64,000 nt of DNA from Patulibacter sp. GTDB lineage: Bacteria > Actinomycetota > Thermoleophilia > Solirubrobacterales > Solirubrobacteraceae. The notes under the pieces are model-generated. The model searched no databases. It saw only the letters and a list, made by a program, of their open reading frames with translations, and was not told the origin of the DNA. Below, piece by piece: positions 12,094 through 34,313 of the stretch; within the stretch, counting starts at the first letter, position 1; every line of letters starts with the position of its first letter. Made by a program: the position numbers and the translations under genes. The stretch is from contig JASGGQ010000001.1 of NCBI GenBank assembly GCA_047604965.1, positions 88 to 64,087 on the forward strand, written 5' to 3'.

Positions 12094-12198
12094 TGTCCCC
12101 TTCGAGCGAGGTTGGTGTGGTGATGTCGCCAGTGGCCCCAGCACAAGCCCCGCTGATCGACGGGGAGGTGCGCCCTGAGGAGAGATGCTGGCCGAAGA

Positions 12199-12216
12199 CG
12201 ACTGAAATCTAAGTGG
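12199..12216. promoter_or_regulatory. AT-rich promoter patch upstream of dnaK with the imperfect palindrome ACTGAAATCTAAGT; weak HspR-operator candidate
   Basis: It lies about 105-125 nt upstream of the dnaK ATG. On the gene strand a TTTGAT-N16-TAGATT-like promoter overlaps it. The palindrome is symmetric at 10 of 14 positions. It shares AATCTAAGT with the clpB upstream region. Confidence 0.25.
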
Positions 12217-12324
12217 GATCGTAGCAGATCAAATGAGGGTGCCGACCAACCTCCGCGACGGCTCTTGCTGCCGGGCAGCGGCGAGGGGTGGGGCCGAGGA
12301 TCGTCGACCCCACCCACGCGACCT

Positions 12325-13566
12325 TCAACGGGTGCGGATCGTGCGCGAAAGCGTCGAGCGGTTGCCGGCGCCGTCGGTGACCGCGACCAGCAGCGTGAGC
12401 CGCGCACCCTGCGGCCGGCGGATCGCGGTGCGCGTCCGCGAATCTAGGGCGACTGCGACGCGGTCGTAGCCGGCGCCGCCGCTGACCTCAGCATCTGAGG
12501 TGCCGGCGGTGCGCCCCGCGTACTTCACCTTCGCGGTGCCCGCGCATGCCTCGTCGCAGTTCACCGTCAGCTGGACGCCGCCCGCCAGGAGCCGCGAGCG
12601 CAGCTGCGTCGACGACGACGACACCGACAGTCCAGGCCGGCTCGTGTCGTTCGCGACCGTGCCGGCAGCGGCGAGCGCGACCAGCGACGCGCTGCTGCCG
12701 ATCACGAAGTTGCTGCCAACTGCCGATGCCTTGCCGTCGCTCAGGTTCACGCGGTAGAGCCCGACCCGCGTGCCTCCAGCGGTCGTGGTGATCGCGGCGT
12801 AGCCGGCGTTGTCGTCGGCGATGTCGAACGCAACCGGGCTGCCGTTCGTGCCGAGCGTCCCGACGGTGTGCAGCACTCCGTCGTCGATCGGCTCCTGCCG
12901 CACCACGGTGTTGCGCGCCGCGTCGAGTGCGAACAGCTGCGTGGTCGTGCCGACCGGGAAGGAGTTCGTGAACGCGATCGCCGCGAGCTTCGGGGTGGTC
13001 CCGGCGCCCGCGTCGCCCGAAGCGTATGCGGGGACGCCGAGCGGCTGGCCCGGCGCATCGGTGGCGGTTGGGGTCGGCGTCGTGGTCGCCGTCGTGTCTG
13101 CCGGTGTGGCGGTCGGCGTCGGCGTGACCGTCACACGATCGAGCTGGCCGGTTGACGGGTCGATGCGCAGGTTCTGGCCGGCAGTCGTCTCGACCTGAAT
13201 GCGATCGCGGACCGGGTCGAAGTTCAGGCTCGCGCGATCGCCGGTCAGTGCCGGGTCGAGCTCCTGCTCGCCGACGTACCGCACGGCGGCGGTACGCGGG
13301 TTGATGACGACGAAGCGGTTCTTGTTCGTCAGGCCGTACAGCCGCAGGTCGGCCGGCCGCAGATCGAGCCCGATGACGCGCTCGCCGTCGCGCAGCCCTT
13401 GGATCGGCAGCGCCGGAACGGTCGTCGTGTTGTCGGACTGGAAGGTGACGAGCTCGTTGTCGCTCGTGACGCCGTAAAAGGCGGTCGCGGCCGACGCGCC
13501 GGCCGGAGCGGCGATCGCAAGTGCCAGCGGCGCGGCAACGATGGCGAGGTGACGGGTAATGGACAT
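12325..13566 (-). CDS. Secreted DUF4394-domain protein
   Basis: Signal peptide MSITRHLAIVAAPLALAIAAPAGASA, with the ATG at 13566 preceded by GGAGGA. DUF4394-like core: FYGVTSDNELVTF...VIGLDLRPADLRLYGLTNKNRFVVINPRTAAV. There is a T/P-rich linker and a C-terminal Ig-like region. Confidence 0.8.
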   Translation of the reverse strand: MSITRHLAIVAAPLALAIAAPAGASAATAFYGVTSDNELVTFQSDNTTTVPALPIQGLRDGERVIGLDLRPADLRLYGLTNKNRFVVINPRTAAVRYVGEQELDPALTGDRASLNFDPVRDRIQVETTAGQNLRIDPSTGQLDRVTVTPTPTATPADTTATTTPTPTATDAPGQPLGVPAYASGDAGAGTTPKLAAIAFTNSFPVGTTTQLFALDAARNTVVRQEPIDDGVLHTVGTLGTNGSPVAFDIADDNAGYAAITTTAGGTRVGLYRVNLSDGKASAVGSNFVIGSSASLVALAAAGTVANDTSRPGLSVSSSSTQLRSRLLAGGVQLTVNCDEACAGTAKVKYAGRTAGTSDAEVSGGAGYDRVAVALDSRTRTAIRRPQGARLTLLVAVTDGAGNRSTLSRTIRTR

Positions 13567-13727
13567 GGTTCCTCCGTGGTGCGCGACGTCGCAGGGACGC
13601 CGATCTGCCCGTCGCAACGCACGACTGGGCCGAGCGATGCGCGCCGGCCGCCAAGCTGGCGCGCAGGCGTGTCTGCGTCAAAGCGCTGCAACGGCGGTTG
13701 CGCGACGGCGAGGTGACCCAACCAGCT

Positions 13728-14015
13728 TCAGCGGTGCGCGCCGAGCCGGTCCGCCAGTGCGTCGTCGTCGATCCCGGAGATCTCCAGCACCTTGTCGCGC
13801 GCCGTCAGGCCGATCACGACGCTCACCTGCCGCGCGCGCAGTCCGAGCGCGCCCGCAACGACCGCGCATACCTCCGCGTTCGCGCGGCCGTCCAGCGGTG
13901 GAGCGGCCACGCGCACCAGCAGCACGCCATCCTCGCGCCGGCCGGCGATCCCGGGCCGCTTCGCGCGCGGCGTGACACGAACGGCAAGGCGCACCACCGT
14001 CGCAGAGTGTCGCAC
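13728..14015 (-). CDS. DUF167/YggU-family protein
   Basis: The C-terminal 95 codons of track ORF 13728..14315 match the YggU pattern: VRVTPRAKRPGI...LLVRVAAPPLDGRANAEV...VIGLTARDKVLEISG. The proposed GTG start at 14015 is approximate. Confidence 0.7.
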   Translation of the reverse strand: MRHSATVVRLAVRVTPRAKRPGIAGRREDGVLLVRVAAPPLDGRANAEVCAVVAGALGLRARQVSVVIGLTARDKVLEISGIDDDALADRLGAHR

Positions 14016-14050
14016 GCACGCTGAAGCGTCGCTGCTCGTGCCCGCGCTGC

Positions 14051-14683
14051 TCAGTCGACTTCGGTGCGTGGGCAGAGCGACCGCAGCGCGCAGGCGTCGC
14101 ACTTCGGTCGTTGCGCGGCGCAGGTGCGTCGTCCGTGCCGCAGGAGGCCTACGTGCAGCTCCCAGGCGGCGCCGGCCGGGGTGAGCGCCAGCATCGCGTC
14201 GTGCAGTTCGTCGAGCGGTGCGCCGGGGCGCAGCAACCCGAGGCGTGTGCCGACGCGCGAGACGTGCGTGTCGACGGGAACGTCCTGCATACCGAAGGAG
14301 AACAGCAGCACGCACGCCGCCGTCTTGCGGCCGACGCCGGGCAGCGCGCAGAGGGCGGCTTGTGCGTCGCGCAGCGGGAGTTCGGCGAGCGCGTCGAGTG
14401 AGAGCGGCTCGCCGATCGCGGTGAGGATCGCTTGGATGCGTGCCGACTTGACCTTCGAGATGCCGCCCCGGCGGATCGCGCGTTCAACCTCGTCGACCGG
14501 CGCGTCGCGCACCTGCTCCCACGTTGCGAAGCGGTCGGTCAGCCCGAGGTATGCGATGTCGCGGTTGCGGTCGTTGGTTGATTGTGAGAGGACGGTGAGG
14601 ATCAGCTCGCCGATCGGGTCGCCGTGCGGCCGCTCGACCGGCACGCCGTAGAGGTCGCGCAGCCGGCTGCGCAAGCGCCGCAC
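14051..14683 (-). CDS. nth: Endonuclease III (DNA glycosylase/AP lyase)
   Basis: Helix-hairpin-helix LPGVGRKTAACV, catalytic region DTHVSRV, and a 4Fe-4S cluster loop C-x6-C-x2-C-x5-C (CAAQRPKCDACALRSLC). I re-set the start to GTG 14683; the track ORF has a 270-aa Arg-rich artefactual extension. Confidence 0.9.
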   Translation of the reverse strand: MRRLRSRLRDLYGVPVERPHGDPIGELILTVLSQSTNDRNRDIAYLGLTDRFATWEQVRDAPVDEVERAIRRGGISKVKSARIQAILTAIGEPLSLDALAELPLRDAQAALCALPGVGRKTAACVLLFSFGMQDVPVDTHVSRVGTRLGLLRPGAPLDELHDAMLALTPAGAAWELHVGLLRHGRRTCAAQRPKCDACALRSLCPRTEVD

Positions 14684-14775
14684 GCGGCCGGCACTTGGCG
14701 CACGCCAATCGGCGCGGGAGATCGTCGCTTTGCCGCGTACCTGCGGGCCGGTGCGCCGTGCGGTCGACGCCACCG

Positions 14776-15675
14776 CTATACGGCGCCCCAGCGCTGCACG
14801 ACTTCGGCGGCGGCGCGCATTGCGTCGGGCAGGGCGGCGTTCAGTGCGGGGGCGTAGCCGCGGCTGGCGGCGAGCGCGGCAAGCAGCACGCCGGTCACGG
14901 CGTCTCCGGCGCCGGAGGTGCTGCGCGGCGTGACGGGAACGCCGGCAACCTCCCGCGCGACGCCATCTTCGCCGCGTAGGACGGCGCCGCGCTCGCCACA
15001 CGTCACGACGACGTTGCGGGCCACGTCGCCTTGGAGCGCGGCGGCGGCGGCGGCGGGATCGGCTTCGCCGGTCAGCCAGCGCGCTTCTTCGTGGTTCATT
15101 TTGGCGACGAAGACGCCGTCGAGTAGTTGAAGCGTCGCGTCGACCATCGCCTGGTGGCTGGCCCAGCGGCCGGGGCGCATGTTTGCGTCGACGACGACGA
15201 GTTTGCCGGCGTCGAGCGCTTGCTGGCGCGCGCCGAGCGTGAGCTGGCGCTCCTGGTCGCCAAGCAGCGTGTTGGAGGCAAGCAGCACCAGGTCGGCGCG
15301 GCCGATCGCGCCGGGGATGCGGTCGGCGGCGGGGACCAGCCCAAGGCCGGTCGTGCTGCCGTAGATCGCGTAGTTCGGTTCGCCGCGCCGATCGACGGTG
15401 ACGAGTGCCAGCGGTGTACGGCCGCCTGTTTCGTGGACGAGATCGGTGGTGTCGATCTGTTCGGCGTGCAGCCGCCGGGCGAGCCAGTGTCCCCACGGGT
15501 CGTCGCCGACGCCACCGCAGATCGCGACCTGCGCGCCGCGCCGCGCCGCCTGCACGGCGACGTTTGCGAGCGCCCCGCCGAAGTGCGGCACGAAGCCATC
15601 AACGTCGGTCGGGTCGGCGGCGGGCCGCTCGGCGACCAGGTCGACGAGCGCCTCGCCGAGGCAGACGATGCGCAT
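14776..15675 (-). CDS. PfkB-family carbohydrate kinase (fructokinase/KDG-kinase-like)
   Basis: The start is MRIVCLGEALVDL (ATG 15675). It has the N-terminal GG motif (HFGGALANVAV) and the C-terminal ATP/anion-hole motif TSGAGDAVTG. Confidence 0.88.
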   Translation of the reverse strand: MRIVCLGEALVDLVAERPAADPTDVDGFVPHFGGALANVAVQAARRGAQVAICGGVGDDPWGHWLARRLHAEQIDTTDLVHETGGRTPLALVTVDRRGEPNYAIYGSTTGLGLVPAADRIPGAIGRADLVLLASNTLLGDQERQLTLGARQQALDAGKLVVVDANMRPGRWASHQAMVDATLQLLDGVFVAKMNHEEARWLTGEADPAAAAAALQGDVARNVVVTCGERGAVLRGEDGVAREVAGVPVTPRSTSGAGDAVTGVLLAALAASRGYAPALNAALPDAMRAAAEVVQRWGAV

Positions 15676-15724
15676 ACGCCAGATCGTACGGCGTGCCGCC
15701 GGTGGCCGGTGTGCGCCACGCCAG

Positions 15725-15800
15725 CTGCCGCACCAAATCTCGGTGCGGCAGTTCGTGTTCGTACGAACACCAGCTGCCGCACCGAGATGTGGTGCGTCGG
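15725..15800. promoter_or_regulatory. Palindromic complex: four 10-nt segments that can pair with each other, around a 52-bp near-perfect palindrome (15737..15788)
   Basis: Read directly. The four segments are CTGCCGCACC (15725-34), GGTGCGGCAG (15742-51), CTGCCGCACC (15774-83) and GGTGCGTCGG (15791-800). The central 16-bp perfect palindrome is GTGTTCGTACGAACAC (15755-70). It lies in the divergent intergenic region between the PfkB kinase and the PAP2 gene. Confidence 0.8.
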
Positions 15801-16013
15801 GGTGGCACCACTTGCGTGACGGGCGGCCGGCGTACGCGGCCCGACTGCTCGGCCGGGCCGTTGCCGACGCGGCGCACGAGTTCTGGTCGTGCGACATCAG
15901 CCTCCTCGAGTACCGGTTCATGCGCGCAGATGCGCTGCTGGGCCCAAATCAGATCACCGACGCCTGAAGGGACGAGCGCGGCATGAACCGGCCGCCGCGT
16001 ACCATGGGGGGCT

Positions 16014-16781
16014 GTGCCTGACCGTCGCGCACCTTGGCTGCCGAACGGCTGGCGCGACTTCGCGGTGCAGCTGGTCGTGCTCGCGGTCGCGATCTTCGCC
16101 TACCAGCTCACCCGCGGCCTGGCTGACAGCGGCGCGACCGCCGCGCAGGCGGTCGACAACGCGCGCCACCTCGTCGCGATCGAGCGGGCGCTCGGGCTGT
16201 ACGTCGAGCCAGACATCCAGCGTTGGGCGCTCGGCGTGCCCGATCTCACCGACATCCTCTCGTGGGTGTACCTCAACGTGCAGACCACGCTGACGCTCGC
16301 CGGCCTGCTGTGGATCTACCTGCGTCACAACGAGCGCTACTACTTCGTGCGCAACATGTTCTTCGTGTCATTCGTGGGTGCGTGCGCGATCTACGCGCTG
16401 CTGCCGACCGCCCCGCCGCGCCTGATGCCCGCCGAATATGGCTTCGTCGACTCGGTGCAGCAGTTCTCCGGCGCCCGCAAATTCATCTGGCAGGCCTTCG
16501 CCAATCCGTACGCCGCGATGCCTTCGATGCACGTTGGGTTTTCGCTGATGATCGGCTGGTCGATCGCGTCGCTCGCGCGCCGCCGGGCGGTACGTGCCGC
16601 CTGGCTTGCCTATCCGACTGGCATCCTGTGGGTCGTCGTCGCGACGGGCAACCACTTCTGGCTCGACGCGGCGGCCGGCGCGGCAGTTGCCGCAGTCGGT
16701 GCCGGAAGTGCCTACGCTCTGGGTCGACTCCGCCCCGCTTCGTGGGCGTGGACCGGACAGCCATCGGAAGCCACCACGTGA
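16014..16781 (+). CDS. PAP2-superfamily integral membrane phosphatase/transferase
   Basis: 255 aa with multiple TM segments. PAP2 C2/C3 motifs are present: PSMHVGFS and GNHFWLDAAAG. Its stop overlaps the next gene's start (GTGA). Confidence 0.85.
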   Translation: MPDRRAPWLPNGWRDFAVQLVVLAVAIFAYQLTRGLADSGATAAQAVDNARHLVAIERALGLYVEPDIQRWALGVPDLTDILSWVYLNVQTTLTLAGLLWIYLRHNERYYFVRNMFFVSFVGACAIYALLPTAPPRLMPAEYGFVDSVQQFSGARKFIWQAFANPYAAMPSMHVGFSLMIGWSIASLARRRAVRAAWLAYPTGILWVVVATGNHFWLDAAAGAAVAAVGAGSAYALGRLRPASWAWTGQPSEATT

Positions 16782-17395
16782 CCAGCACGCCCCCAACTTC
16801 GCCGCAGCGGCCTCGGATCATCAGTCCTGAACGCCAGGAACTCGTCCGCAACCGCCTGATCGAATCGCGGCTGACTCCGAACGCGATCTCACTGACCGGG
16901 CTGGCGCTCTGCCTCGTTGCCGCCGGCCTGGTGTACGCCGACCAGCTCTTCCTCGGCGGCATCGCGTTCATCGTCGGCTCGGTCTGCGACATGCTCGACG
17001 GCAAGTACTCGCGGATGTCCGGCAAAGCCTCGCCGTTCGGTGCGTTCCTGGACTCGACGCTCGACCGGATCGAGGAGGGCGTGATGTTGACGGTGATCGC
17101 CGCGAGCTTCGCTGCCGACGCGAACAAGCTCGCGACCGCCGCGACCGCCGGTGCGATCGTCAGCTCGCTGATGGTGTCGTACACCCGCGCGCGCGCCGAA
17201 GCGCTTGGCGTCGAATGCAAGGTCGGCTTCGGGAATCGCGCCGGCCGCGTCATCATTCTCAGCGCCGGCCTGCTCCTCGCGGGGCTCGGTGTGCTCGAAT
17301 ACGCCGTCTACATCCTTGCCGCACTGAGTACGGTCACCGTGCTCCAACGCATCTTCCACGTCCGCCAGGCGCTGCTCGCGCCCTCCGCGATCTGA
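16778..17395 (+). CDS. pgsA: CDP-alcohol phosphatidyltransferase (phosphatidylinositol-phosphate synthase-like)
   Basis: CDP-OH-P motif DMLDGKYSRMSGKASPFGAFLDSTLDRIEE (D-x2-DG-x2-(A/S)R...G-x3-D-x3-D). It is a 205-aa membrane protein with a GTG start at 16778, in frame inside track ORF 16223..17395. It is adjacent to ino1. The gene symbol is tentative. Confidence 0.85.
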   Translation: MTSTPPTSPQRPRIISPERQELVRNRLIESRLTPNAISLTGLALCLVAAGLVYADQLFLGGIAFIVGSVCDMLDGKYSRMSGKASPFGAFLDSTLDRIEEGVMLTVIAASFAADANKLATAATAGAIVSSLMVSYTRARAEALGVECKVGFGNRAGRVIILSAGLLLAGLGVLEYAVYILAALSTVTVLQRIFHVRQALLAPSAI

Positions 17396-21789: not shown

Positions 21790-21999
21790 TCCCATACGGC
21801 GAGACGCGCTTCGTGGCGTTTCCGTGTGGTGGTTCCCCCCGAATCGTGGAGGTCTTCTTGATGCGGCTTCGACTGGCGCGGGTCGACGTGCGGTGTTCGC
21901 CGGGGTCGACCGTGGGCACCGGTGGTGATTCACGTATGAGTTGCCCGCAAGCGCGCCCCGAAAGTCGACGCGGCTGGTCGACCGGGGTACAGTGCGCCG

Positions 22000-23016
22000 G
22001 TGAGCCCCTCCCTGGCTGCCATGTTCGCTCGTGCATCCGCGCTCGCGCTGCCGTGCTCGGTGGCGCTCGCGCTGCCCGCGACTCAGGCCATCGCCGCAGA
22101 TGAGATCGGCAAGAAGTCGGGCGTCAGCTACGCGGGCATGCATGCCGTGGACACGCAGGCGCGGCTGGTGCTCTTCGCCGACACCTTTGACAACGGGGCA
22201 AAGTGCTCGGCTCACGCGATGGTGGAGTACAAGCCCGTGCTCCACGCGCGGCGCTACGAGCACAACACCACGCTGTTCCCCTACGAGATGTCCACGATTT
22301 CCTACGCTTGGACGAGGGACGGCAGCGATGGCGACGTGGGCGATACGTCGTCGTCGACGTACTACGACGCCAACACCGGCAAGACGTACGGGCCGACGGA
22401 GGAGGGCTATCGGTTGGAGACCGGCCTCGGGCAGTGGGGCGGCGTCGTCTCGCCGCCGTGCCCGACCGACCCGACGATCGGCGGCACGTACACGCTCCAA
22501 CGCATGGTCGGCTGGGTCTCTGACTCCTACGCCGCGCCGACGCCCACGCCGGAACCCACACCGACGCCGACGCCCACGCTGGAATCCACGCCGACACCGA
22601 CCACGCTGGAATCCACGCCGACGCCGACCGCCGATCCCACGCCGACGCCGACCACGCAAGCGCTTGAGTTGTTGCCGCCGCCGCTGGGTGCGCTCGCTCG
22701 GTTGCAGTCGTCGGCCCCCACCGTCAAGGGTGGGGCGACCAGCATCACCGTCACGCGCGATGGCAAGCAGTATCGGGCCGACACCACCTCGGCTTTCCAG
22801 TTCGGTGACGTGATCGAGATTGACGAGGACACGTTGCTGACGATCGAATACCTGACGGGTGGGCGAGTCGGCTTGGCGCACGGCGCCAAGGTGCGCATTA
22901 CCGGCGACCGGGAGATGGAGTTGCTCGGCGGGACGACGGAGGCTGCTCCGTCGTACGACTATCTGCACCCACTCGAGATTCAGACCAATGGTGGTGTCGT
23001 GGGGATCCGCGGATGA
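22000..23016 (+). CDS. Secreted hypothetical protein with a P/T-rich linker and a FecR-like C-terminal domain
   Basis: Signal-like N-terminus (ALALPCSVALALPATQAIA), linker PTPTPEPTPTPTPTLESTPTPTTLESTPTPTADPTPTPTT, and a C-terminal beta-rich segment resembling FecR (ITVTRDGKQYRADTTSAFQFGDVIEIDEDTLLTIEYLTGGRVGLAHGAKVRI). The FecR call is tentative. Confidence 0.6.
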   Translation: MSPSLAAMFARASALALPCSVALALPATQAIAADEIGKKSGVSYAGMHAVDTQARLVLFADTFDNGAKCSAHAMVEYKPVLHARRYEHNTTLFPYEMSTISYAWTRDGSDGDVGDTSSSTYYDANTGKTYGPTEEGYRLETGLGQWGGVVSPPCPTDPTIGGTYTLQRMVGWVSDSYAAPTPTPEPTPTPTPTLESTPTPTTLESTPTPTADPTPTPTTQALELLPPPLGALARLQSSAPTVKGGATSITVTRDGKQYRADTTSAFQFGDVIEIDEDTLLTIEYLTGGRVGLAHGAKVRITGDREMELLGGTTEAAPSYDYLHPLEIQTNGGVVGIRG

Positions 23017-23444
23017 GCCACCGACCGGTCACGATCGCGCTGCTGGCCGTCACGGTCGCGGTCTCCGGTGGCGCGGCCGCCGCCGCGCTGGCGGGCCCAC
23101 CGGCCGCGCCGACCCTGGTGCCGATGGCCTCGTCCGCCAAGGCTAACCCGGTCGTGGGCACGGTCACCAAGCTCGGCGGTTCCAAAAAGCTGAAGGTGCA
23201 GGCCGAGGGCAAGGGCAAGGCGAAGACGCTCACGGCCGGCGGCGAGCTGCGGCTCGGTGATCGCGTCACGCTCGGCAAAGGCGTGACCGCGACGCTCAAG
23301 CTGACGCGCCCGAAGTCGGTCACCGAAGGCACCGTGCTCGTGTACGTCACCTCGGCCAAGGGCACCTCGCATCGCTCCAAGCTCACCAAGAAGGGCCGCA
23401 CCACCACGGCGGTCATCACCCCTGTCAAGTCGAGCAAGAAGTAG
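23013..23444 (+). CDS. Small secreted/anchored lysine-rich hypothetical protein (FecR-like beta segment)
   Basis: 143 aa. ATGA overlap with the upstream gene. TM/signal segment VTIALLAVTVAVSGGAAAAALA. Segment VVGTVTKLGG...LTAGGELRLGDRVTLGKGVTATLKL. GC3 is high. Confidence 0.6.
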   Translation: MSHRPVTIALLAVTVAVSGGAAAAALAGPPAAPTLVPMASSAKANPVVGTVTKLGGSKKLKVQAEGKGKAKTLTAGGELRLGDRVTLGKGVTATLKLTRPKSVTEGTVLVYVTSAKGTSHRSKLTKKGRTTTAVITPVKSSKK

Positions 23445-23626
23445 GTCCTGGACCTTGCGCGGCGCGAGCATCGGGCCGTGGTGACGAACAACCTCGTGGA
23501 CTCCCGGCCGTTGCATCACGAGGCGATCGTCCTGGGCGGCCCCGGGCACCTCGGGATCATCTTCATGCCTGGCGCGTATCGGCGGGCGAGATCCGTGCAT
23601 CGGCTGGGCGCAGCGACGCGCTACGG

Positions 23627-25228
23627 TCACGGCAGGCCGACGACGGCGACGGGGAGCCAGGCGTCGGACGCCGAGCCGTTGCCGAGCTGCCCGTAGCCGT
23701 TGTTGCCCCAGCACTTGGCGCCGCCGGTCGTGAGCATGACGCAGGTGTGGTACCAGCCGGCGGTGATCGCGGTGGCGTCGGTGAGGTTCTCGGTCGGGAT
23801 GGGCACCGGCTTGACGTGCGCGTCGTAGTCGGAGGTGCCGATGCCGAGCTGCCCGTAACCGTTGAGTCCCCAGCAGCTGACGGTCTGGTTGCTGCGCAGC
23901 GCACACGTGTGCCCGTAGCTGGTGCTGATCGCGATGGCGTCGGTGAGGTCCTTGACGGCGACCGGCTTGTCGCGGTCGGTGGTGCTGTCGTCGCCGAGCT
24001 GTCCGAGCTCGTTGTTCCCCCAGCAGCTGACGGTCTGGTTGCTGCGCAGCGCGCACGTGTAGTCCAAGCCGGCGGTGATCGCGGTGGCGTCGGTGAGGTC
24101 CTTGACGGCGACCGGCGCGTTGCGGCTGGTGGTGCTGTCGTCGCCGAGCTCGCCGTCGCTGTTCATGCCCCAGCAGCTGACCTCGCCTGTGCTGCGCAGC
24201 GCACACGTGTGCTCGTAGCCGGCGGTGATCGCGGTGGCATCGGTGAGGCCGGTGACGGGGAGTGGCTTGGGGTGGGGGTCGTGGTCGTCGTGGCTGTTGC
24301 CGAGCTGCCCGCTGTTGTTGTACCCCCAGCAGCTGACGGTCTGGTTGCTGTGCAGCGCACACGTGTGCTCGTAGCCGCCGCCTCTGGCGCCGGCGGCGAT
24401 CGCGGTGGCATCGGTGATGTCGCTGACGGCGACCGGCGTGGCGCGGGGGACGGTGCTGTCGTCGCCGAGCTGCCCGTAGTCGTTGTTGCCCCAGCAGCTG
24501 ACGGCGCCGGTGCTGTGGACCGCGCACGTGTGCCGCCCGCCGGTGGCGATCGCGGTGGCATCGGTGAGGCCGGTGACGGGGGCCGGCGTGGGGTGCGGGT
24601 CATCGTCGGCGGTGCCGATGCCAAGCTGCCCGTCGGTGTTGGCGCCCCAGCAGTTCGCGGTGCCGGTGCCCTGCAACGCGCAGGTCGTCCGGCCGCCGGC
24701 GACGAGTTGCGTGCCCGACGACGACGGGGTGGGAGGCGCAGGGGCGGGGGCCGGAGTGGCGGTCGGCGCCGGATCTGGTGTGGGGGTCGGCGTGCCGGGA
24801 TCTGGTGTGGGGGTCGGCGTGCCGGGGGTGAGCTTGATGAGCTTGGACTTGGTGGCGAGCGTCTTCTTGCCGCTGACGAGCGTCAGGCGCAGGCGGTAGC
24901 TGCCGACCGCCGGGGCCGTCCAGGCGAGCGTGAACGCCTTCTGCTTGCCGCTCGGCTTGCCGGTGGCCGCGAGCTTCCACTTCGTGCCGGCGCGGCGCTG
25001 CAGCCGCACCTTTGCACCCGATGGCGCGTTGCTCGCGCGCCCGGTGATCGTCACCTTGAGGCCCGCAGGTGCCGTCCAGGCGACTTTTGCCAGAGCCGGC
25101 TTGGGCTTCTTTGAGCTTGAGTTCGCGGCGCCCGCCGATCCGGCGGGGCCCGCCAGCGTCGCGACGAGCACCCCGCCGAGGACGGCCGCCCGCCGTCCGA
25201 ACTTGCCGAGGCCCGCTGCGTGTCCCAT
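23627..25228 (-). CDS. Secreted RCC1-repeat (seven-bladed beta-propeller) protein with an N-terminal Ig-like domain
   Basis: Seven CWG-x-N-x2-GQLG blades: ANCWGANTDGQLG, VSCWGNNDYGQLG, VSCWGYNNSGQLG, VSCWGMNSDGELG, VSCWGNNELGQLG, VSCWGLNGYGQLG, AKCWGNNGYGQLG. I re-set the start to MGHAAGLGKFGRRAAVLGGVLVATLAGPAGSAGA (ATG 25228). Confidence 0.9.
   Translation of the reverse strand: MGHAAGLGKFGRRAAVLGGVLVATLAGPAGSAGAANSSSKKPKPALAKVAWTAPAGLKVTITGRASNAPSGAKVRLQRRAGTKWKLAATGKPSGKQKAFTLAWTAPAVGSYRLRLTLVSGKKTLATKSKLIKLTPGTPTPTPDPGTPTPTPDPAPTATPAPAPAPPTPSSSGTQLVAGGRTTCALQGTGTANCWGANTDGQLGIGTADDDPHPTPAPVTGLTDATAIATGGRHTCAVHSTGAVSCWGNNDYGQLGDDSTVPRATPVAVSDITDATAIAAGARGGGYEHTCALHSNQTVSCWGYNNSGQLGNSHDDHDPHPKPLPVTGLTDATAITAGYEHTCALRSTGEVSCWGMNSDGELGDDSTTSRNAPVAVKDLTDATAITAGLDYTCALRSNQTVSCWGNNELGQLGDDSTTDRDKPVAVKDLTDAIAISTSYGHTCALRSNQTVSCWGLNGYGQLGIGTSDYDAHVKPVPIPTENLTDATAITAGWYHTCVMLTTGGAKCWGNNGYGQLGNGSASDAWLPVAVVGLP
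24771..24824 (-). repeat. Perfect 27-bp tandem duplication inside the RCC1 gene's P/T linker
   Basis: Read directly: GGATCTGGTGTGGGGGTCGGCGTGCCG x2, encoding the repeated nonapeptide PGTPTPTPD in-frame. Confidence 0.85.
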
Positions 25229-25362
25229 CTCGGCGACCGTACCGCCCGTCACACCACCCGCGCAAGCACCAGCGTCCACCCGCCGGCGACGTGCCTTCGA
25301 CCGAGTCCACCGATCCGCGGCACGGGGCGGGCGATGCGCCGGAAGTTCGAGCAGATGGTTGA

Positions 25363-25860
25363 TTGCATGGGGTGGTGTTGTGGCTGTGCGTGATTCGTGG
25401 ATGCCCTGGATGCTGGGGTGAGTCATCACCATGCTGGTGGCCTGGGTTGACTCGCACCAGGACCCACTTCGGCGAGTTTGATCTCCCGTCGCAGCGTGTC
25501 CGCCTGCCGCAGGTCGGGAACATCCCGCTGACCGGCCTAGTCAAGCTCGTCGTTTCCGGCGCTCCGCAACAGGAGCTCGTCAACGGCGAACTGGTCGTGA
25601 CGACGAAGGTCAAGGTGCGCATGGAGAAGGTGTTCCAGTTCGGCGCGATCGAAGTCGCCGGCCCGGCAACCTGCCAAACCTCGCGGCTCAGCACGATCGT
25701 GCTGCGCGGCAGCTTTCACCCCGCGACTGGCGGCACCCTCAACGGCACCTACGACATCAGCAACATGACTGGCTGCGGCAGCCTCAACGGCCTCATCAAC
25801 CCGCTCACCGAGAGCACCAACAACCCGATCAGCATCACACTCACCCCCAACGCCGTCTAG
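25363..25860 (+). CDS. Hypothetical protein, possibly a 5'-truncated remnant
   Basis: GC3 is high only from about 25450 onward (...THFGEFDLPSQRVRLPQVGNIPLTGLVKLVVSG...NGTYDISNMTGCGSLNGLINPLTESTNNPISITLTPNAV). No signal peptide or convincing start or ribosome-binding site exists in any frame upstream, and the first ~30 codons of the track ORF have poor GC3. Confidence 0.45.
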   Translation: MHGVVLWLCVIRGCPGCWGESSPCWWPGLTRTRTHFGEFDLPSQRVRLPQVGNIPLTGLVKLVVSGAPQQELVNGELVVTTKVKVRMEKVFQFGAIEVAGPATCQTSRLSTIVLRGSFHPATGGTLNGTYDISNMTGCGSLNGLINPLTESTNNPISITLTPNAV

Positions 25861-28125
<2,265 letters not shown>

Positions 28126-28208
28126 CAGCTCGCGAGAGGTTTCAAGGTGCGCACGCCGGCCGGTCACGCGCGCACCGTGTGCGCGCGACCGCTACCATGA
28201 GCCGCTGC

Positions 28209-28281
28209 GGCGAGATAGCTCAGTTGGTAGAGCACACGACTGAAAATCGTGGTGTCCCGGGTTCGAATCCCGGTCTCGCCA
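28209..28281 (+). tRNA. tRNA-Phe (anticodon GAA)
   Basis: I folded the cloverleaf by hand. Acceptor GGCGAGA/TCTCGCC, D-arm GCTC-AGTTGGTA-GAGC, anticodon arm CACGA-CTGAAAA-TCGTG (GAA at 34-36), variable loop GTGTC, T-arm CCGGG-TTCGAAT-CCCGG, discriminator A. No CCA is encoded. Confidence 0.95.
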
Positions 28282-28286
28282 TTCGG

Positions 28287-28301
28287 GTTCGAGACTTGTC
28301 C
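28287..28301. repeat. Left direct repeat GTTCGAGACTTGTCC, immediately preceded by GCCATTCGGG (28278..28287), which spans the tRNA 3' end
   Basis: Read directly. It matches 30466..30480 at 14 of 15 positions, and 15 of 16 when the preceding G is counted. It also resembles the tRNA T-arm start (GGTTCGAAT). Confidence 0.8.
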
Positions 28302-28309
28302 GTCCGCGA

Positions 28310-28798
28310 CTACGGCGCAAGGACGAGCCGCGCCTGCTGCTGACGGAGCAGCGAGAACGTGTTGATCGTCTTCACGCCGTGCGGGATGCAGGCGTCCGGG
28401 ATCTTGATCTTCTTCGTCGATGCCGAGGGCTGCTCAAGCGTGACGACGTCAAAGCCGTGGGCGTGCGCATGGGCGACGAGGTAGTAGTCCGCTCCGTCGA
28501 GAAACGGGGTGACCGCGACCGGTTCGTACTGAGCACCGCGCGCCCACGACGCGATCGTGGCGAGGCTCGGGAGCACCGCGGCGTCCGGTGCCAGGAAGAA
28601 GTCGGCGCCCCTTGCCTTCGCCCAGTCCGCGAGTTCGTGCGCGCCTCCGAGCAACTCGTCACGAACCCGCTGGATCGAGAACACGTTGCCGCTGGCGTGC
28701 TCGCGGTCGATCCAGTCCCAGAAGCCGGGGGCGAAGTCGAACGGGTAGTACGAGTTCTTGGCGGTGATGAAGACGTTGGTGTCGAGCAGGTACGCCAT
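28310..28798 (-). CDS. PIN-like nuclease-fold protein (DUF4411 family)
   Basis: 162 aa. The N-terminus MAYLLDTNVFITAKNSYYPFDFAPGFWDWI is the characteristic DUF4411/PIN opening (acidic D in LLDTN). Further acidic residues follow (DELL, FLDGADYYLVAHA). Its ATG at 28798 directly abuts the TAG of the upstream ImmA/IrrE gene. Confidence 0.8.
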   Translation of the reverse strand: MAYLLDTNVFITAKNSYYPFDFAPGFWDWIDREHASGNVFSIQRVRDELLGGAHELADWAKARGADFFLAPDAAVLPSLATIASWARGAQYEPVAVTPFLDGADYYLVAHAHAHGFDVVTLEQPSASTKKIKIPDACIPHGVKTINTFSLLRQQQARLVLAP

Positions 28799-29947
28799 CT
28801 ACGCGACACCCACGCGAGAGGCCAGCTCGTTGAAGGTCGAGACCTTCTTGAAGCCCAGCATCTGGAAGGCGTCGCGATGGAGCGTCTGGCCTGCCAGAGT
28901 GCTGCGGATCAGCGCGCGCGTGAAGCGCTTGCTCGTGCGGACCGGCTGGGTGTTGTAGAAGCTGCCGCCGGTCGCCCTGCGCTGTTCCATGAGCGCCAGG
29001 ACGCGCGCCAGCTCTGTCTCGTACTCCTGTCGGAATTGCGTGTCGGAGAGCAGCCCGGCGTCGTAGATCCGGCGCAGCGCGACGAGCGTGCTGACCTTGA
29101 ATCTGCGCGCGATCTGTTCGAGAGCGGCCGGCACATCGGTGAGGTCCAGCGCTGCGGGCAGTGCGCTCGTCGGCAACAGGAACTCGGCCGCGACCTGGTT
29201 GCACCACCGCTCGGTCGCGTTGGCCGACGTGCGCCGCATGTCGGCGTCGGAGACGGCCGACTGGCCGAGCCAGATGTGGACCAGTTCGTGGGCGAGTGTG
29301 AAGATCTGCGCTGCTCGTGTGTCGGCTCCGTTGACGAAGACGACCGGGGCAAGATCGTCGGCGAGCGCGAACCCGCGGAACTCCTTGGGGTCGAGCTTGC
29401 GGTGCGTGTTGCTGCCGACAACGCCACTGACCATCACCAAGACCCCACTGTCCTCCGCCTCAGCAACGAGACGGCTGAACGCGTCGGTCCACGTGGAGCC
29501 GCGCTCGTCGGGCGCGAACGACAGCGTCTCGCGCATCGCGTCGGCAGCTTCGACGACGTCGGAGCCAACGCTAAGCGTCCCGACGACCGCGACCGGGTCT
29601 TCGCGGTTCAGTCGCGCGTAGTCGCGGTACCACTCCTGGCGCTGCTGGCACTGGTAGATCGTGTCCAGCAGGTTCGGGCTCGCGTAGCCGACCGTGACAT
29701 CACCGATCGTGCGGAAGTCGGGCACCCGCAGCGCCTCGTCTGGCGGCGCGCCGAGGAAGAAGTAGCCGACCGGCGTGTACGTCGCCGACGCGAACTTCTC
29801 AAGCTGCTTGAGCGTCGGCTGCTTGGTTCCCGCCTCCCACTCTTCGAGCGCCGCAAACCGCCTGAAGAGATCCTCGGGCGCGATCCGCGACCGCTCGCGT
29901 GCCCACGCGAGCATCGCCGGCTGGACGGATACCCGGACGGTCGTCAC
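28799..29947 (-). CDS. XRE-type HTH fused to an ImmA/IrrE-family (COG2856) zinc metallopeptidase
   Basis: 382 aa. N-terminal HTH region (LAWARERSRIAPEDLFRRFAALEEWEAGTKQPTLKQLEKFASATYTPVGYFFL) and HEXXH zinc site (FTLAHELVHIWLG) with downstream E (AAEFLLP). GTG start at 29947. Confidence 0.85.
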   Translation of the reverse strand: MTTVRVSVQPAMLAWARERSRIAPEDLFRRFAALEEWEAGTKQPTLKQLEKFASATYTPVGYFFLGAPPDEALRVPDFRTIGDVTVGYASPNLLDTIYQCQQRQEWYRDYARLNREDPVAVVGTLSVGSDVVEAADAMRETLSFAPDERGSTWTDAFSRLVAEAEDSGVLVMVSGVVGSNTHRKLDPKEFRGFALADDLAPVVFVNGADTRAAQIFTLAHELVHIWLGQSAVSDADMRRTSANATERWCNQVAAEFLLPTSALPAALDLTDVPAALEQIARRFKVSTLVALRRIYDAGLLSDTQFRQEYETELARVLALMEQRRATGGSFYNTQPVRTSKRFTRALIRSTLAGQTLHRDAFQMLGFKKVSTFNELASRVGVA

Positions 29948-30036
29948 GGCGTGGTGAGCGGCCCGGTCTGGCGGCGCTCAAGCTCGTTGACTCTCATCGC
30001 CAGCATCGTTCGATCATATGGGCCGGGCCTCCTGTA

Positions 30037-30050
30037 GTTCGGAACCGAAC
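30037..30050. promoter_or_regulatory. Inverted repeat GTTCGG-AA-CCGAAC upstream of the ImmA/IrrE-PIN operon; candidate operator
   Basis: Read directly. It lies about 90-100 nt upstream of the GTG at 29947, next to a TATGAT -10-like hexamer on the gene strand. Confidence 0.3.
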
Positions 30051-30168
30051 CTGTCCAGGCACAATCCACGGGACCATGTAGGTCTTCTGACTCGACGTCA
30101 TCGCCCAGAAGGTTACTGCGGCGTCGTGACCGACGCCGACGATCGCTCCGCGGCGTAGCGGACGAACG

Positions 30169-30510
30169 TCACGCTGCTTCGTAGCGCCCGTAGCCGACCT
30201 TGCGCACCGCGACATCGTCGCGCCACAGGGCGCTGTCGGCGCTGGAGCCGCTGACCGGCTCGCCAAGGCGTCGCTCGGCCTCCCGCTGCAGGTCGATGGC
30301 CCGCATGGGCATCTCGGCCTCGGCGAGGATTCGCTCAAGCAGTCGCATGACCTGCCCCGGCCGGCGAGCCTGGCGCGGGCGAGGGCTCGGACGGTCAGCG
30401 GCCTCGCCGTCCCGCACACCCTCCAGAACCGAGGTCAGGTTCGCCCACGAGCTCTTGACAGATCGGTTCGAGAGTTGTCCAGCTAGAGCCATTCGGGACA
30501 GGCCTTGCAA
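30169..30510 (-). CDS. Small hypothetical protein with a winged-helix-like C-terminus (weak HARE-HTH resemblance); start uncertain
   Basis: 113-aa track ORF with a TTG start. GC3 is good in the C-terminal ~60 codons (MRLLERILAEAEMPMRAIDLQREAERRLGEPVSGSSADSALWRDDVAVRKVGYGRYEAA) and poor in the first ~20 codons, which overlap the right-hand repeats. Alternative ATG starts lie at 30492 and 30348. Confidence 0.4.
   Translation of the reverse strand: MQGLSRMALAGQLSNRSVKSSWANLTSVLEGVRDGEAADRPSPRPRQARRPGQVMRLLERILAEAEMPMRAIDLQREAERRLGEPVSGSSADSALWRDDVAVRKVGYGRYEAA
30466..30497. repeat. Right repeats: GTTCGAGAGTTGTCC (30466..30480), 7 nt, then GCCATTCGGG (30488..30497)
   Basis: Read directly. The 10-mer is identical to 28278..28287 (tRNA 3' end plus 6 nt) and the 15-mer differs at one base from 28287..28301. 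Together they resemble a degenerate copy of the tRNA T-arm-to-3'-end segment: GGTTCGA...GCCATTCGGG. Confidence 0.8.
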
Positions 30511-30606
30511 CGCGGGGCCTTTTTCGTTGCTGCGAGACTGCCAAGTTCAGCGTCTCTGCGCGCCGCCAGCGGAGTTCGTGGCGTCAACGAGGCGGATTCG
30601 GGGTCG

Positions 30607-31215
30607 CTACTTCGCTTGGAGGATCGTCTCGAGGTGATCCAGTGGGCTGGTGGTGCGGTCCATGCGAACGTCCTCCAGCCACACGCGAAACGCGGCGAGT
30701 GTTCGGGCGACCAACAGGCGCAGTTGCCAGTCGAGGAGCGGCGGACTGGCGTCGCGCTGGCGGAGGAGGTCGGTGAGCATCCGCTCACGATCGGTGAGGT
30801 GGATCAGCGGCGAGCGGCTGGCCGCTCCCGCGTCGGTTGAGGCGACGAAGAACAGCGACAGCCGCTCCCAGTGCTCCAGAACGTACGTAGCGAGTTGCCG
30901 AAAGGCATCCCGTAGGACGCGGGCATTGTCGTCTTGCGCTGGCGCGGCTGCAATGGCCGCTTCGAGCTGCTGCGTCATCTCGATCACCGGTTCGAGCAGG
31001 AGGTCGGCCTTGGCCGGGAAGTAGCGGAAGAAGCTGCGCGGTGCCACGCCGGCGGCGTCGCAGATCTCGTCGACCGAGACGTTTGCGAAGCCGCGCTCGG
31101 CGAACAGCGCGATCCCAATCTCCGCGACTTTGGCCTTGGCCTCGGCACGTTTGCGCTCGCGTCGCGTCGGTGGCTTCGCGGATGGGCTGGGGGCGCTGTT
31201 CGAGGAAGCTCGCAT
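30607..31215 (-). CDS. TetR-family transcriptional regulator
   Basis: 202 aa after I re-set the start to the ATG at 31215. HTH: GFANVSVDEICDAAGVAPRSFFRYFPAK. It is divergent from the MFS transporter gene. Confidence 0.9.
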   Translation of the reverse strand: MRASSNSAPSPSAKPPTRRERKRAEAKAKVAEIGIALFAERGFANVSVDEICDAAGVAPRSFFRYFPAKADLLLEPVIEMTQQLEAAIAAAPAQDDNARVLRDAFRQLATYVLEHWERLSLFFVASTDAGAASRSPLIHLTDRERMLTDLLRQRDASPPLLDWQLRLLVARTLAAFRVWLEDVRMDRTTSPLDHLETILQAK

Positions 31216-31270: not shown

Positions 31271-32752
31271 ATGAGCCAGACAACACGCCCCGCAACCACC
31301 AACGATGAGACAGCGCCGCCCGATCGCGACGACGGTTGGACCGCACGCCAGCGCGCCGCAGTGGCGATCACCGCAGTCTGCGGCGTGCTCGTCGCGCTGA
31401 CACAGACGCTGCTGATCCCGATGATGTCCGAGATCCAGGCAGAGCTGGGCAGCTCAAGCAGCGGCACGCAGTGGCTGCTGACCTCGACGCTGCTGGTCGC
31501 GGCGATTGCGGTGCCGGTGTTCGGCCGCCTGGGCGACATCTTCGGCAAGCGGCTGATGCTGCTGGTCGCGATCGGCGCGTTGCTGCTGGGGTCGCTGATC
31601 TGCGCCCTGGCCGGCGGCAGCTTGGCCGTGATGATCGCCGGTCGTGCGGTCACTGGTGCGTCGGCCGCAGCGATCCCGCTGGGGATCAGCGTGATCGGCT
31701 CGGTTCTGCCGGCGCACCGTGCCGGGACCGGGATCGCGCTGGTGAGCGCCACGCTCGGAGTCGGTGGAGCACTCGGCCTGCCGCTCGCTGCGCTCGTCGC
31801 CCAAAGCGCCGACTACGACGTGCTGTTTTGGATCTGCGTCGCCGGTGCCGCAGCTGCCATGGCCGGGATCCGCTGGGCGGTTGATGCCGACCCGCCGCAG
31901 GTCGACGACGGCCGAGTCGACTTCGTTGGCGCCGGATTGCTCACCCTGATCCTCGTCTGCCTGCTCCTGCCGCTTTCGCAGGCATCGAGTTGGGGGTGGG
32001 GTGATCCGCGCACGCTCGGCCTGCTGGCCGTGTCGCTGATCGCGCTCGCGGTCTTCGTGGTCGTCGAACGGCGGATGACCTCTCCGCTCGTTGATGTCGT
32101 CAGCAACGCCCGCCCGGCGCTCCTGCTCACGAACATCGCCTCGGTCTGCGTCGGATTCGCGCTGTTTGCGATGCTGATCGGGACCGCGAGCTACGTGCAG
32201 GCTCCTGAGGCCACCGGCTACGGCTTCGGCTCGACGATGCTTGCTGCCGGGTTGGCGATGGCTCCCAGTGGCATCATGATGCTCCTCCTGGCCCCGGTTT
32301 CGGCGGCGCTGTCGACGCGATATGGGCCGAAGGTCACGCTGGCGCTCGGGGCCGTGGTGATCGCGACTGGATTCGTCTTCCGGATCACGGTGATCGACCA
32401 CTTCTGGCAGATCGTCGTCGGGACCACGATCGTCGGCGCCGGGACCGGCATTGCGTACGCCGCGATGCCGAGCATGATCCTGCTCGGCGCCCGCAAGTCA
32501 GAGCTGGCGGCGGCCAACGGGTTGAACGCGCTCGCTCGCACCGTCGGCAGTTCGGTGGCGAGCGCGGTAGGTGGCACGATTTTGGCGGCGCAGACGATCA
32601 ATCTGGCGGGGGTCGATTTGCCGTCCCTGGGTGCGTACCGCACATTGTTCGCGCTCTGCGCCGGCTCGGCGCTGCTCGGCGCGGCAATCGCGTTGACCGT
32701 TCCCACTGGCCGCCGCGAAACGGCCGTTGACCTCGCGTCGCGGGCCAGCTAG
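31271..32752 (+). CDS. MFS transporter, DHA2 (EmrB/QacA-like, about 14 TMS) drug:H+ antiporter family
   Basis: 493 aa, hydrophobic throughout. MFS motif A is present (GRLGDIFGKRLMLL). The length and TM count fit the 14-TMS subfamily. It is paired with the TetR gene. Confidence 0.9.
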   Translation: MSQTTRPATTNDETAPPDRDDGWTARQRAAVAITAVCGVLVALTQTLLIPMMSEIQAELGSSSSGTQWLLTSTLLVAAIAVPVFGRLGDIFGKRLMLLVAIGALLLGSLICALAGGSLAVMIAGRAVTGASAAAIPLGISVIGSVLPAHRAGTGIALVSATLGVGGALGLPLAALVAQSADYDVLFWICVAGAAAAMAGIRWAVDADPPQVDDGRVDFVGAGLLTLILVCLLLPLSQASSWGWGDPRTLGLLAVSLIALAVFVVVERRMTSPLVDVVSNARPALLLTNIASVCVGFALFAMLIGTASYVQAPEATGYGFGSTMLAAGLAMAPSGIMMLLLAPVSAALSTRYGPKVTLALGAVVIATGFVFRITVIDHFWQIVVGTTIVGAGTGIAYAAMPSMILLGARKSELAAANGLNALARTVGSSVASAVGGTILAAQTINLAGVDLPSLGAYRTLFALCAGSALLGAAIALTVPTGRRETAVDLASRAS

Positions 32753-32789: not shown

Positions 32790-34145
32790 CTAGTACTGCA
32801 CGACCGCCGCGCTGCGTGGGCCGAGCGTCAGCGACTTGACCTTCACGGTCGGCTGCGGCCACGTCGTCGATGCGAGGTTGACGCCGGCCTTCGGGAGCTT
32901 GACGCGCTTGCTGACATCGTTCGGGTTGAGTACGACGATGCCGTGCTTGAGCTTGCGCGTCAGCAGGCCGCGGCGATCGACGCGCTTGCCGACCGGCTTG
33001 CCGAGATTCGCGCTGTAGCCCGCCCAGCCGCGCCCCGGATATTGGCAGGTATCGCCGACGCTGTCGCCCGATTTGAAGGTCAATACCGCCGTCGCGAAGT
33101 TGAACGCTGCGGCGCGCGTATGCGCCTGCCACACCAGATCGCCAAGTGCCCAGGTGCCGGACGCCTGGTCGGCGTCGCCGCAGGCCGGTAGCGCCGCGAG
33201 CAGCGGGGCGCCGGCCACCGGCGTCTGGCTTTTCGTCAGATCGGCGCTGGAGGTCATCTCCCACTGCACCTTGGCCTTGCGTTGATGCAGCGCGTCGGCG
33301 AAGGTCAGCAGTCGCCGGTACGACCACGCCACCGTCGCGGCGAGCGGGTAATGCAGCCCGGGGTCGATCGCGCCGCCCTCGATGATGACCTGATCGGCGA
33401 GCCGGGCCGCGCGCACCGCCGGATCGCTTGCCTTGAGCTTTGGCTTGGCGGCGTACCCGTACTTCGTGTCGGTCCAGTGCATGTTGATCGTGAAGGTCGT
33501 GCCCTTCGGCTTGAGCTTCTTGAGCGACTTCAGCAGCGTGAGCACGCCGTTCGCCCACCGCTTCGCCGAGATCTGCATCGCCGGGGAAAAGCCGACCTTC
33601 GGATTGGTGAGCGCGTTGTCGATCCACAGGCTCGAATACCCGCACGCGTACAGGTCCAATGCGCCGCGCTCGTTGGCGTCCGGGTTGCAACTCACCTTGC
33701 CGTCGGCGCCGTACAGCCACCACCTGCGGGCCGCCGGGATCCGCAGGTCGATCGTTTGCCAATCGGTATCGACGGCGACCGGCTGTCCGTTCTGCGTCAT
33801 CCGCCACGCCTGGGTTTCGTTCATGCCGGCGGTGTTCCAGCGGTTGACGCCGGTGCCGTTGCGGTACACCGCCGTGCGGGCTTTGATCGCCCAACCGGTG
33901 ATGTACTGGCTGACTCGCGGATCGGAGTCGTGCAGCACGAGCGGGCTGGCGTTTGCGGCCAGCCACTTCTGCTCGGCGGTCATTTCCGCTGCCGACGTCT
34001 GCGGGCCTGCGGTCAAGAGGTAGCGGTCGAGCGACGGATCGACGCGGCGCGAAACGTTCATCGTTGCGGCGTCGGCGATCGACGGGACGCCGAACGCGAG
34101 CAGCAGCGCGGCCACCACGGCACCACGCAGGAAGGAGAGGGCCAT
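32790..34145 (-). CDS. Secreted glycoside-hydrolase-like (TIM-barrel/GHL-type) protein, paralog B
   Basis: I re-set the start to MALSFLRGAVVAALLLAFGVPSIADA (ATG 34145). It is colinear with the 1..1425 protein over its whole length. The family name is tentative. Confidence 0.8.
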   Translation of the reverse strand: MALSFLRGAVVAALLLAFGVPSIADAATMNVSRRVDPSLDRYLLTAGPQTSAAEMTAEQKWLAANASPLVLHDSDPRVSQYITGWAIKARTAVYRNGTGVNRWNTAGMNETQAWRMTQNGQPVAVDTDWQTIDLRIPAARRWWLYGADGKVSCNPDANERGALDLYACGYSSLWIDNALTNPKVGFSPAMQISAKRWANGVLTLLKSLKKLKPKGTTFTINMHWTDTKYGYAAKPKLKASDPAVRAARLADQVIIEGGAIDPGLHYPLAATVAWSYRRLLTFADALHQRKAKVQWEMTSSADLTKSQTPVAGAPLLAALPACGDADQASGTWALGDLVWQAHTRAAAFNFATAVLTFKSGDSVGDTCQYPGRGWAGYSANLGKPVGKRVDRRGLLTRKLKHGIVVLNPNDVSKRVKLPKAGVNLASTTWPQPTVKVKSLTLGPRSAAVVQY

Positions 34146-34313
34146 CGACGGAGCGTACCGATCGGGGAGGGCGAACCGTTCCAGTAGGCCCCAAAGCTGG
34201 CCGAAATACTGGCCTGCGGTGTCACGGCATGCGGCCACCACCGCCTGGTGTCGCATCGCCGCGTGACACGGCGTTCAGTGCGGGCGCCGCCGCGTATCGG
34301 CGATGATCGCGCG

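Follow-up and report, generated by a model that had tools for sequence, protein, structure and literature searches.

How did three minus-strand genes come to lie directly behind an intact tRNA-Phe gene in a Patulibacter sp. genome, and do the short repeats at the two ends of this cluster record its arrival? The genes lie in the window, by which we mean the whole 64-kb stretch of DNA analysed here, taken from a metagenome-assembled genome (MAG) of that organism, and an earlier note on this DNA had read them as an islet inserted 3′ of tRNA-Phe. Our analysis indicates that positions 28288-30497 (2210 bp) are probably an integrase-less site-specific insertion between tRNA-Phe and its own terminator, a reading that has gained a stranded terminator and the layouts of two orthologous loci (L082 and L081) and has lost the copy of the tRNA T-arm on which the earlier note had partly relied. 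The segment is best described as an integrase-less islet resembling the cis-mobilizable elements (CIMEs), located at a tRNA-Phe hot spot and with a RosmerTA-like HTH-ImmA/DUF4411 module as its cargo.

Repeats at the two ends of the islet

The features that define the two ends are as follows.

28209 to 28281, + strand: tRNA-Phe(GAA), found by ARAGORN and by Rfam (tRNA, 76.4 bits), intact, the target gene
28278 to 28287, + strand: left 10-bp direct repeat GCCATTCGGG, proposed crossover core (attL)
28286 to 28301, + strand: left 16-mer GGTTCGAGACTTGTCC, non-coding, within the islet, overlapping the core by 2 nt and ending 8 nt before the DUF4411 stop
30465 to 30480, + strand: right 16-mer GGTTCGAGAGTTGTCC, within the islet, 7 nt from the core
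30488 to 30497, + strand: right 10-bp direct repeat GCCATTCGGG, proposed attR core
30500 to 30525, + strand: terminator-like hairpin AGGCCTTGCAACGCGGGGCCT followed by TTTTT, the putative displaced native terminator of tRNA-Phe

The tRNA-Phe(GAA) gene is the single tRNA found by ARAGORN and Rfam; it ends at 28281, and the islet begins at 28288, directly 3′ of the intact gene. The 10-mer is present in exactly two copies in the window, the left one being made up of the last 4 nt of tRNA-Phe and 6 nt of flank. The two 16-mers agree at 15 of 16 positions and can be written jointly as GGTTCGAGA[C/G]TTGTCC, a sequence found only at the two ends of 28278-30497, with no third copy in the window even when 2 mismatches are allowed. 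Both repeats had been pointed out in the earlier note and both hold, as does its description of the left junction, where the first minus-strand gene has its stop codon (28310-28312), 8 nt past the left 16-mer.

The expectation for such matches was obtained by simulation, in which a 60-nt probe around the tRNA end was compared with 35.7 kb of first-order Markov downstream sequence. Exact 10-mer matches averaged 4.7 per simulation, a 16-mer with at most one mismatch appeared in 3.3% of simulations, and a 16-mer lay no more than 60 nt from a 10-mer in 0.8%. Because exact 10-mers are expected by chance at this rate, the 10-mer by itself is no evidence; the 16-mer, and likewise the two repeats together, are above chance level.

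Two further claims about the right-hand end did not survive. The block there had been taken for a degenerate copy of the T-arm-to-3′-end segment of the tRNA, yet 60% of shuffled middles align to the tRNA equally well or better, and the idea of a decayed tRNA copy was dropped on finding that, outside GGTTCGA and the 10-mer, the alignment is no better than that of a shuffled middle. No tRNA fragment was found in this block by Rfam. The right repeats, assumed to lie in spacer DNA, instead probably overlap the 5′ end of the third open reading frame (ORF). As a separate observation, the tRNA acceptor strand GTCTCG and the CGAGAC of the 16-mer form a 6-bp inverted repeat spanning the junction.

A terminator stranded beyond the cargo

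The AGGCCTTGCAACGCGGGGCCT hairpin (30500-30520) starts 2 nt past the right 10-mer, folds at -19.2 kcal/mol and is the only terminator-like site in 28000-30800, a region scanned on both strands. The genes that adjoin it, the third ORF of the islet (ORF3) and a TetR gene, are on the minus strand, and tRNA-Phe, 2.2 kb upstream, is the only + strand transcript that the hairpin could end. Since it lies on the tRNA strand between minus-strand genes, and since a like layout is seen in L082 and L081, we infer that it is the native terminator of tRNA-Phe, displaced to its present position.

Outside these limits the left neighbour is the gene for 2,4-dienoyl-CoA reductase (FadH; 26053-28125, +), and the right neighbours are the TetR gene (minus, from 30607) and a major facilitator superfamily (MFS) transporter gene (31271-32752, +). 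The contrast drawn in the earlier note, between three minus-strand genes and functionally unrelated neighbours (FadH on the left, TetR and MFS on the right), is thus borne out.

The same tRNA gene in relatives

Two loci whose FadH is 81-82% identical to that of the window, L081 and L082, carry the orthologous tRNA-Phe, marked by the common upstream box cgctaccatgagccgc, and in L081 the tRNA gene is identical to that of the window. The three sequences diverge at the base directly after the tRNA discriminator, and the window regains synteny with L082 only at 32790-34256. In L082 a strong terminator hairpin (-41 kcal/mol, z = -7.2) stands 12 nt past tRNA-Phe, as would be expected of an empty site, although the downstream genes differ.

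The other locus, L081 (GCA_017744415.1, JAGIBJ010000106.1), from a Solirubrobacteraceae MAG, holds a 6.2-kb island 3′ of tRNA-Phe at 10721-16916, with an AAA ATPase, an S8/Y4kK peptidase and a GmrSD type IV restriction enzyme as cargo and no integrase. Its ends are GAATCCCGGTCTCGCCATC (10721-10739) and GAGTCCCGGTCTCGCCATC (16898-16916), the latter followed by a hairpin and a T-run; the repeat comprises 19 nt of the tRNA 3′ end (tRNA positions -17 to +2), 18 of them identical between the copies. The window and L081 cassettes have unrelated cargo and differ in putative crossover position and in sub-terminal direct repeats; the 16-mer of the window was absent from the 93 loci scanned, L081 included. 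The 3′ flank of tRNA-Phe is therefore a variable hot spot, and the order tRNA, repeat, cargo, repeat, terminator appears, from the sequences compared, to recur independently. Repeats of the GTTGCATCG type also occur ~100 nt inside both ends of the L081 island, at 10841-10869 and 16805-16833.

The left flank shows differences of its own. A minus-strand glyoxalase gene lies downstream of fadH in L081 (10083-10481), L082 (10989-11381) and L083 (2629-3018), standing between fadH and tRNA-Phe in the first two, the third being a 4.5-kb contig without tRNA-Phe. This gene is missing from the window, where the gap between fadH and the tRNA is just 83 nt (28126-28208). On the far side of fadH, ~4.2 kb (21790-26052) separate a Usp gene from fadH in the window, a gap of 50 nt in L081. 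This segment contains a 601-aa RCC1-repeat protein gene (23627-25432, minus; WD40_RLD 2e-77) and two further ORFs without a Pfam match, and looks like a second lineage-specific insertion.

The cargo of the islet

Between the repeats lie the following features.

28310 to 28798, - strand: DUF4411 (PIN-like) protein, 162 aa, putative toxin (Pfam DUF4411 1.3e-48, PIN 8.9e-5)
28799 to 29947, - strand: HTH-ImmA/IrrE fusion, a helix-turn-helix (HTH) protein with an M78 zinc peptidase domain, 382 aa, putative antitoxin or sensor (Pfam Peptidase_M78 4.7e-18)
29948 to 30168, no strand: 221-nt spacer without codon periodicity, G+C 0.64
30169 to 30492, - strand: ORF3, a small orphan whose C-terminal half is winged-helix-like (weak Pfam match, WH_Rok 3.6e-4, below threshold)

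The first two genes abut (28798/28799) and are co-oriented, and the spacer upstream of them is presumed to be the promoter/operator region of a two-gene operon. The DUF4411 protein matches phrog_11126 (3.9e-35), its gene has a G+C content at third codon positions (GC3) of 0.90, and PADLOC, with its RmrT models, gave no match for the protein at E<0.1. The fusion protein has an HELVH motif in its translation and matches the PADLOC model RmrA over residues 8-309 (9.4e-18) as well as phrog_2439 (9.4e-47). Together the pair may represent a toxin-antitoxin (TA) or abortive-infection module of RosmerTA-like type, a prediction that rests on these domain matches.

Homologues of the ImmA/IrrE protein number at least thousands at E<=1e-20, with 65-75% identity for the best non-self matches listed, and their hosts are Solirubrobacteraceae, Acidimicrobiales and other Actinomycetota; no viral relatives of the protein were found. 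The pairing with DUF4411 is kept in the related loci L084-L092, and in the three contexts sampled the pair had unrelated housekeeping or TA neighbours, with no tRNA and no integrase. Nucleotide homology to these other loci covers the two coding sequences (28310-29945) and stops right at their limits. The pair thus moves about without conserved element ends, and a family of elements with shared ends was rejected on the same ground. In one of the loci (L084:3784-6953, JGI 3300036794) a pair 72% identical to that of the window sits among TA-like genes (a Gp49/HigB-like gene with HTH_37, and a second HTH_37), a sign that some sites may accumulate TA modules.

The operon points into tRNA-Phe, from whose 3′ end it is separated by 28 nt (28282-28312). 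No minus-strand terminator-like site was found between operon and tRNA-Phe in the 28000-30800 scan, and read-through from the operon would run antisense to the tRNA gene.

ORF3 is listed in the source annotation (P0241) as a protein of 59 aa (30169-30348). Among 1.84 billion representatives it had, besides its own annotation, one remote homologue, P0244 (124 aa), which aligns with the long form of ORF3 over 104 residues at 37% identity. This alignment begins at the Met of both proteins, and the N-terminal 48 residues of ORF3 alone match P0244 at E=1e-5, for which reasons ORF3 is probably a 107-aa protein starting at the ATG at 30492-30490, within the right 10-mer, and part of its N-terminus may be missing from the public annotation. 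The start is uncertain, since codon periodicity is strong just for 30169-30351 (GC3 0.85, and 0.72 upstream). P0244 itself belongs to a cluster (L113:6606-10025, GCA_036379915.1) that lies directly 3′ of a tRNA-Ala(GGC) and groups small ORFs with TA genes (PIN/PhdYeFM, PemK); no integrase was called in it and no repeat of the tRNA end was found.

How the islet may have been inserted

The proposed event is site-specific recombination at the 10-bp core GCCATTCGGG, which would leave the tRNA intact, the core supplying its last 4 nt and 6 nt of flank. The incoming molecule would have carried an attP-like sequence reconstructed as GGTTCGAGAGTTGTCC-AGCTAGA-GCCATTCGGG-TTCGAGACTTGTCC, so that in the circle the 16-mers would flank the core and the ORF3 start codon as direct repeats, with a start-to-start distance of 31 bp. 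As integration would split the 16-mers to the inner sides of the core, the swapped order of the repeats at the two ends needs no choice between two crossover sites. The predicted empty site reads ...GGTCTCGCCATTCGGGACAGGCCTTGC... and the predicted circle junction ...GTTGTCCAGCTAGAGCCATTCGGGTTCGAGACTTGTCC...; the 16-mers may be bound by a recombinase or an accessory protein, or else serve as operators for ORF3 or HTH-ImmA.

The islet does not encode the recombinase, which would either have acted in trans on a non-autonomous, CIME-like segment or have been lost by later deletion. Because the L081 island is also integrase-less, we lean slightly toward recombination in trans over a deletion relic. 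A bolder version, to which we give little credence, is that the tRNA-Phe 3′ end of Solirubrobacterales is an acceptor for integrase-less defence/TA cassettes, exemplified by the window and L081, that would be put in place by a recombinase whose gene lies elsewhere in the genome, or that ORF3 and the paired 16-mers might be part of a minimal undescribed recombination module.

Several results weigh against an insertion. The identical repeat is just 10 bp, a length frequent by chance, with 4 of its bases within the tRNA; the repeat of a classic tRNA island is 17 nt or more, and L081 conforms to this. The right 16-mer, read on the minus strand, would encode GQLSNR of the long-form ORF3, and a genuine long form would place the right repeats under coding constraint. 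The islet has a host-like composition (G+C 0.671 versus 0.697 for the window; GC3 0.88-0.90 versus ~0.85), with no compositional anomaly.

The lack of an integrase, already remarked in the earlier note, stands in the three islet ORFs (DUF4411, M78/HTH and the orphan), which include no integration or transfer genes, and among the genes checked around them: an integrase/recombinase motif regex over the whole window gave none, and Pfam on 20 genes between 21.9 and 61.6 kb showed no integrase, all being housekeeping genes; to the left of these, ~14-21.8 kb is syntenic with relatives. A larger island reaching beyond TetR-MFS was considered and set aside, since a search that allowed 3 mismatches found the tRNA 3′ end nowhere else in the window.

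Nor was an empty site seen, no genome among those compared sharing both flanks: the closest have 83% identity in FadH and 89% in MFS. No such comparator is available because the species has been sampled once, the 90%-identity clusters of FadH, ImmA/IrrE and MFS each having a single member. A search for FadH relatives (a GTDB scan and a protein search with contexts) recovered the orthologous tRNA-Phe only in L081 and L082 and the right flank in neither; no tRNA-Phe was found near fadH in L083, L093, L117, L001 or L072. A search for MFS relatives showed that L116 (89%) and L115 (84%) keep TetR-MFS, but away from any tRNA-Phe; the glyoxalase gene beside TetR-MFS in these relatives belongs to another family than the one beside fadH. 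As TetR-MFS is absent from L082 and sits elsewhere in L115 and L116, the right boundary is drawn from the repeats and the terminator, and these two genes may have reached the site only later. Two exact-junction scans of JGI metagenomes (one for the right junction and the empty site, one for attL and attP) returned 0 matches, and motif scans of IMG/VR returned 5 and 14 matches, all in unrelated contexts with no shared flanks.

Alternative explanations

A less likely alternative is that a larger tRNA-Phe element, such as a prophage, an integrative and conjugative element (ICE) or an integrative and mobilizable element (IME), decayed at this site, losing its integrase and most of its genes until only attL, attR and 2.2 kb of cargo remained. 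This account shares the insertion step with our preferred explanation and differs from it in history, and under it the islet would no longer be mobile. It would explain why the islet has no integrase, host-like composition fits the long residence that it implies, and the orphan status of ORF3 and the lack of homologues for the non-coding parts of the islet also favour it. It would, however, require two independent clean losses, since the L081 island is integrase-less as well, and the three ORFs of the islet look intact, with strong GC3 and no pseudogene debris visible.

It is less likely still that there is no insertion scar and that the repeats are chance matches, or operators for HTH-ImmA or ORF3, at the ends of a gene cluster in an ordinary rearranged chromosome. 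Chance alone yields ~4-5 exact tRNA-end 10-mers per 36 kb, and other 9-12-mers of the same probe do occur elsewhere in the window, but the combination of a 15/16 match with a 10-mer within 33 nt was rare in simulation. The position of the right repeats, in or at the start of ORF3, would suit operators, and the missing empty site and the poor synteny on this side of the tRNA would suit rearrangement; neither accounts for a + strand terminator past the right 10-mer that has no + strand gene to serve, nor for the parallel repeat-terminator layout in L081.

Transposition of an insertion sequence- or transposon-like element with a 10-bp target-site duplication, the transposase acting in trans, would account for a short flanking direct repeat that is perfectly identical, but it is very improbable, since no inverted repeat joins the islet ends, no transposase domain was found in the islet, the sub-terminal repeats are direct and not inverted, tRNA 3′ ends are classically targeted by integrases and not by insertion sequences, and the 19-nt L081 repeat contains a mismatch, unlike a duplication made at insertion.

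Comparison with known systems

If the preferred explanation, insertion of the islet at the core without an integrase of its own, is true, the locus offers, in an actinobacterial order that has been little studied, a clean and very small defence/TA cargo at a tRNA hot spot, with a second independent case at the same tRNA in a relative (L081). It would help to annotate such hot spots in MAGs of Solirubrobacterales and would bear on how cassettes without an integrase move.

Classical tRNA-targeted elements encode a tyrosine integrase and duplicate the 3′ end of the tRNA. The islet resembles such islands and prophages in lying 3′ of an intact tRNA, in a candidate direct repeat that includes the tRNA end, in its accessory or defence-type cargo and in the apparent displacement of the tRNA terminator to its far end. 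It differs from them in having neither an integrase nor a G+C anomaly, in a repeat that covers just 4 nt of the tRNA and in a size of 2.2 kb, far under the typical one. The closest parallel in layout, the L081 island, uses the same tRNA gene and likewise runs from tRNA through repeat, integrase-less defence-type cargo and repeat to terminator, but its cargo, the position and length of its repeat and its internal repeats (GTTGCATCG) are different, and the 16-mer is not common to both.

CIMEs, integrase-less islets bounded by att sites, were defined for relatives of Streptococcus ICEs (ICEberg 2.0, PMC6323972). The islet is like them a small segment at a recombination hot spot, with direct repeats and cargo only, and no genes for integration or transfer. 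Its repeat of 10 bp, its putative att sites and its host, a Solirubrobacterales actinobacterium and not a firmicute, set it apart. We know of no cognate ICE or integrase for its site.

As for the cargo, the HTH-M78 fusion followed by a small toxin-like gene, together with the RmrA match, recalls RosmerTA, from which the predicted module departs in that its DUF4411 protein matches no RmrT model. DUF4411.1 downstream of an HTH-DUF955 fusion has been predicted to form a three-component TA system (Matelska et al. 2017, PMC5499597), and in the window, too, DUF4411 lies directly downstream of a fusion of the HTH-DUF955 type. In Actinobacteria DUF4411.1 was described as mostly monocistronic (PMC5499597), unlike its paired arrangement in the window and in L084-L092. 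Set beside these systems, the islet is of an ordinary kind among small genomic islets, and it leaves current understanding unchanged, tRNA-linked islets, CIMEs and ImmA/PIN-like TA modules being already well known.

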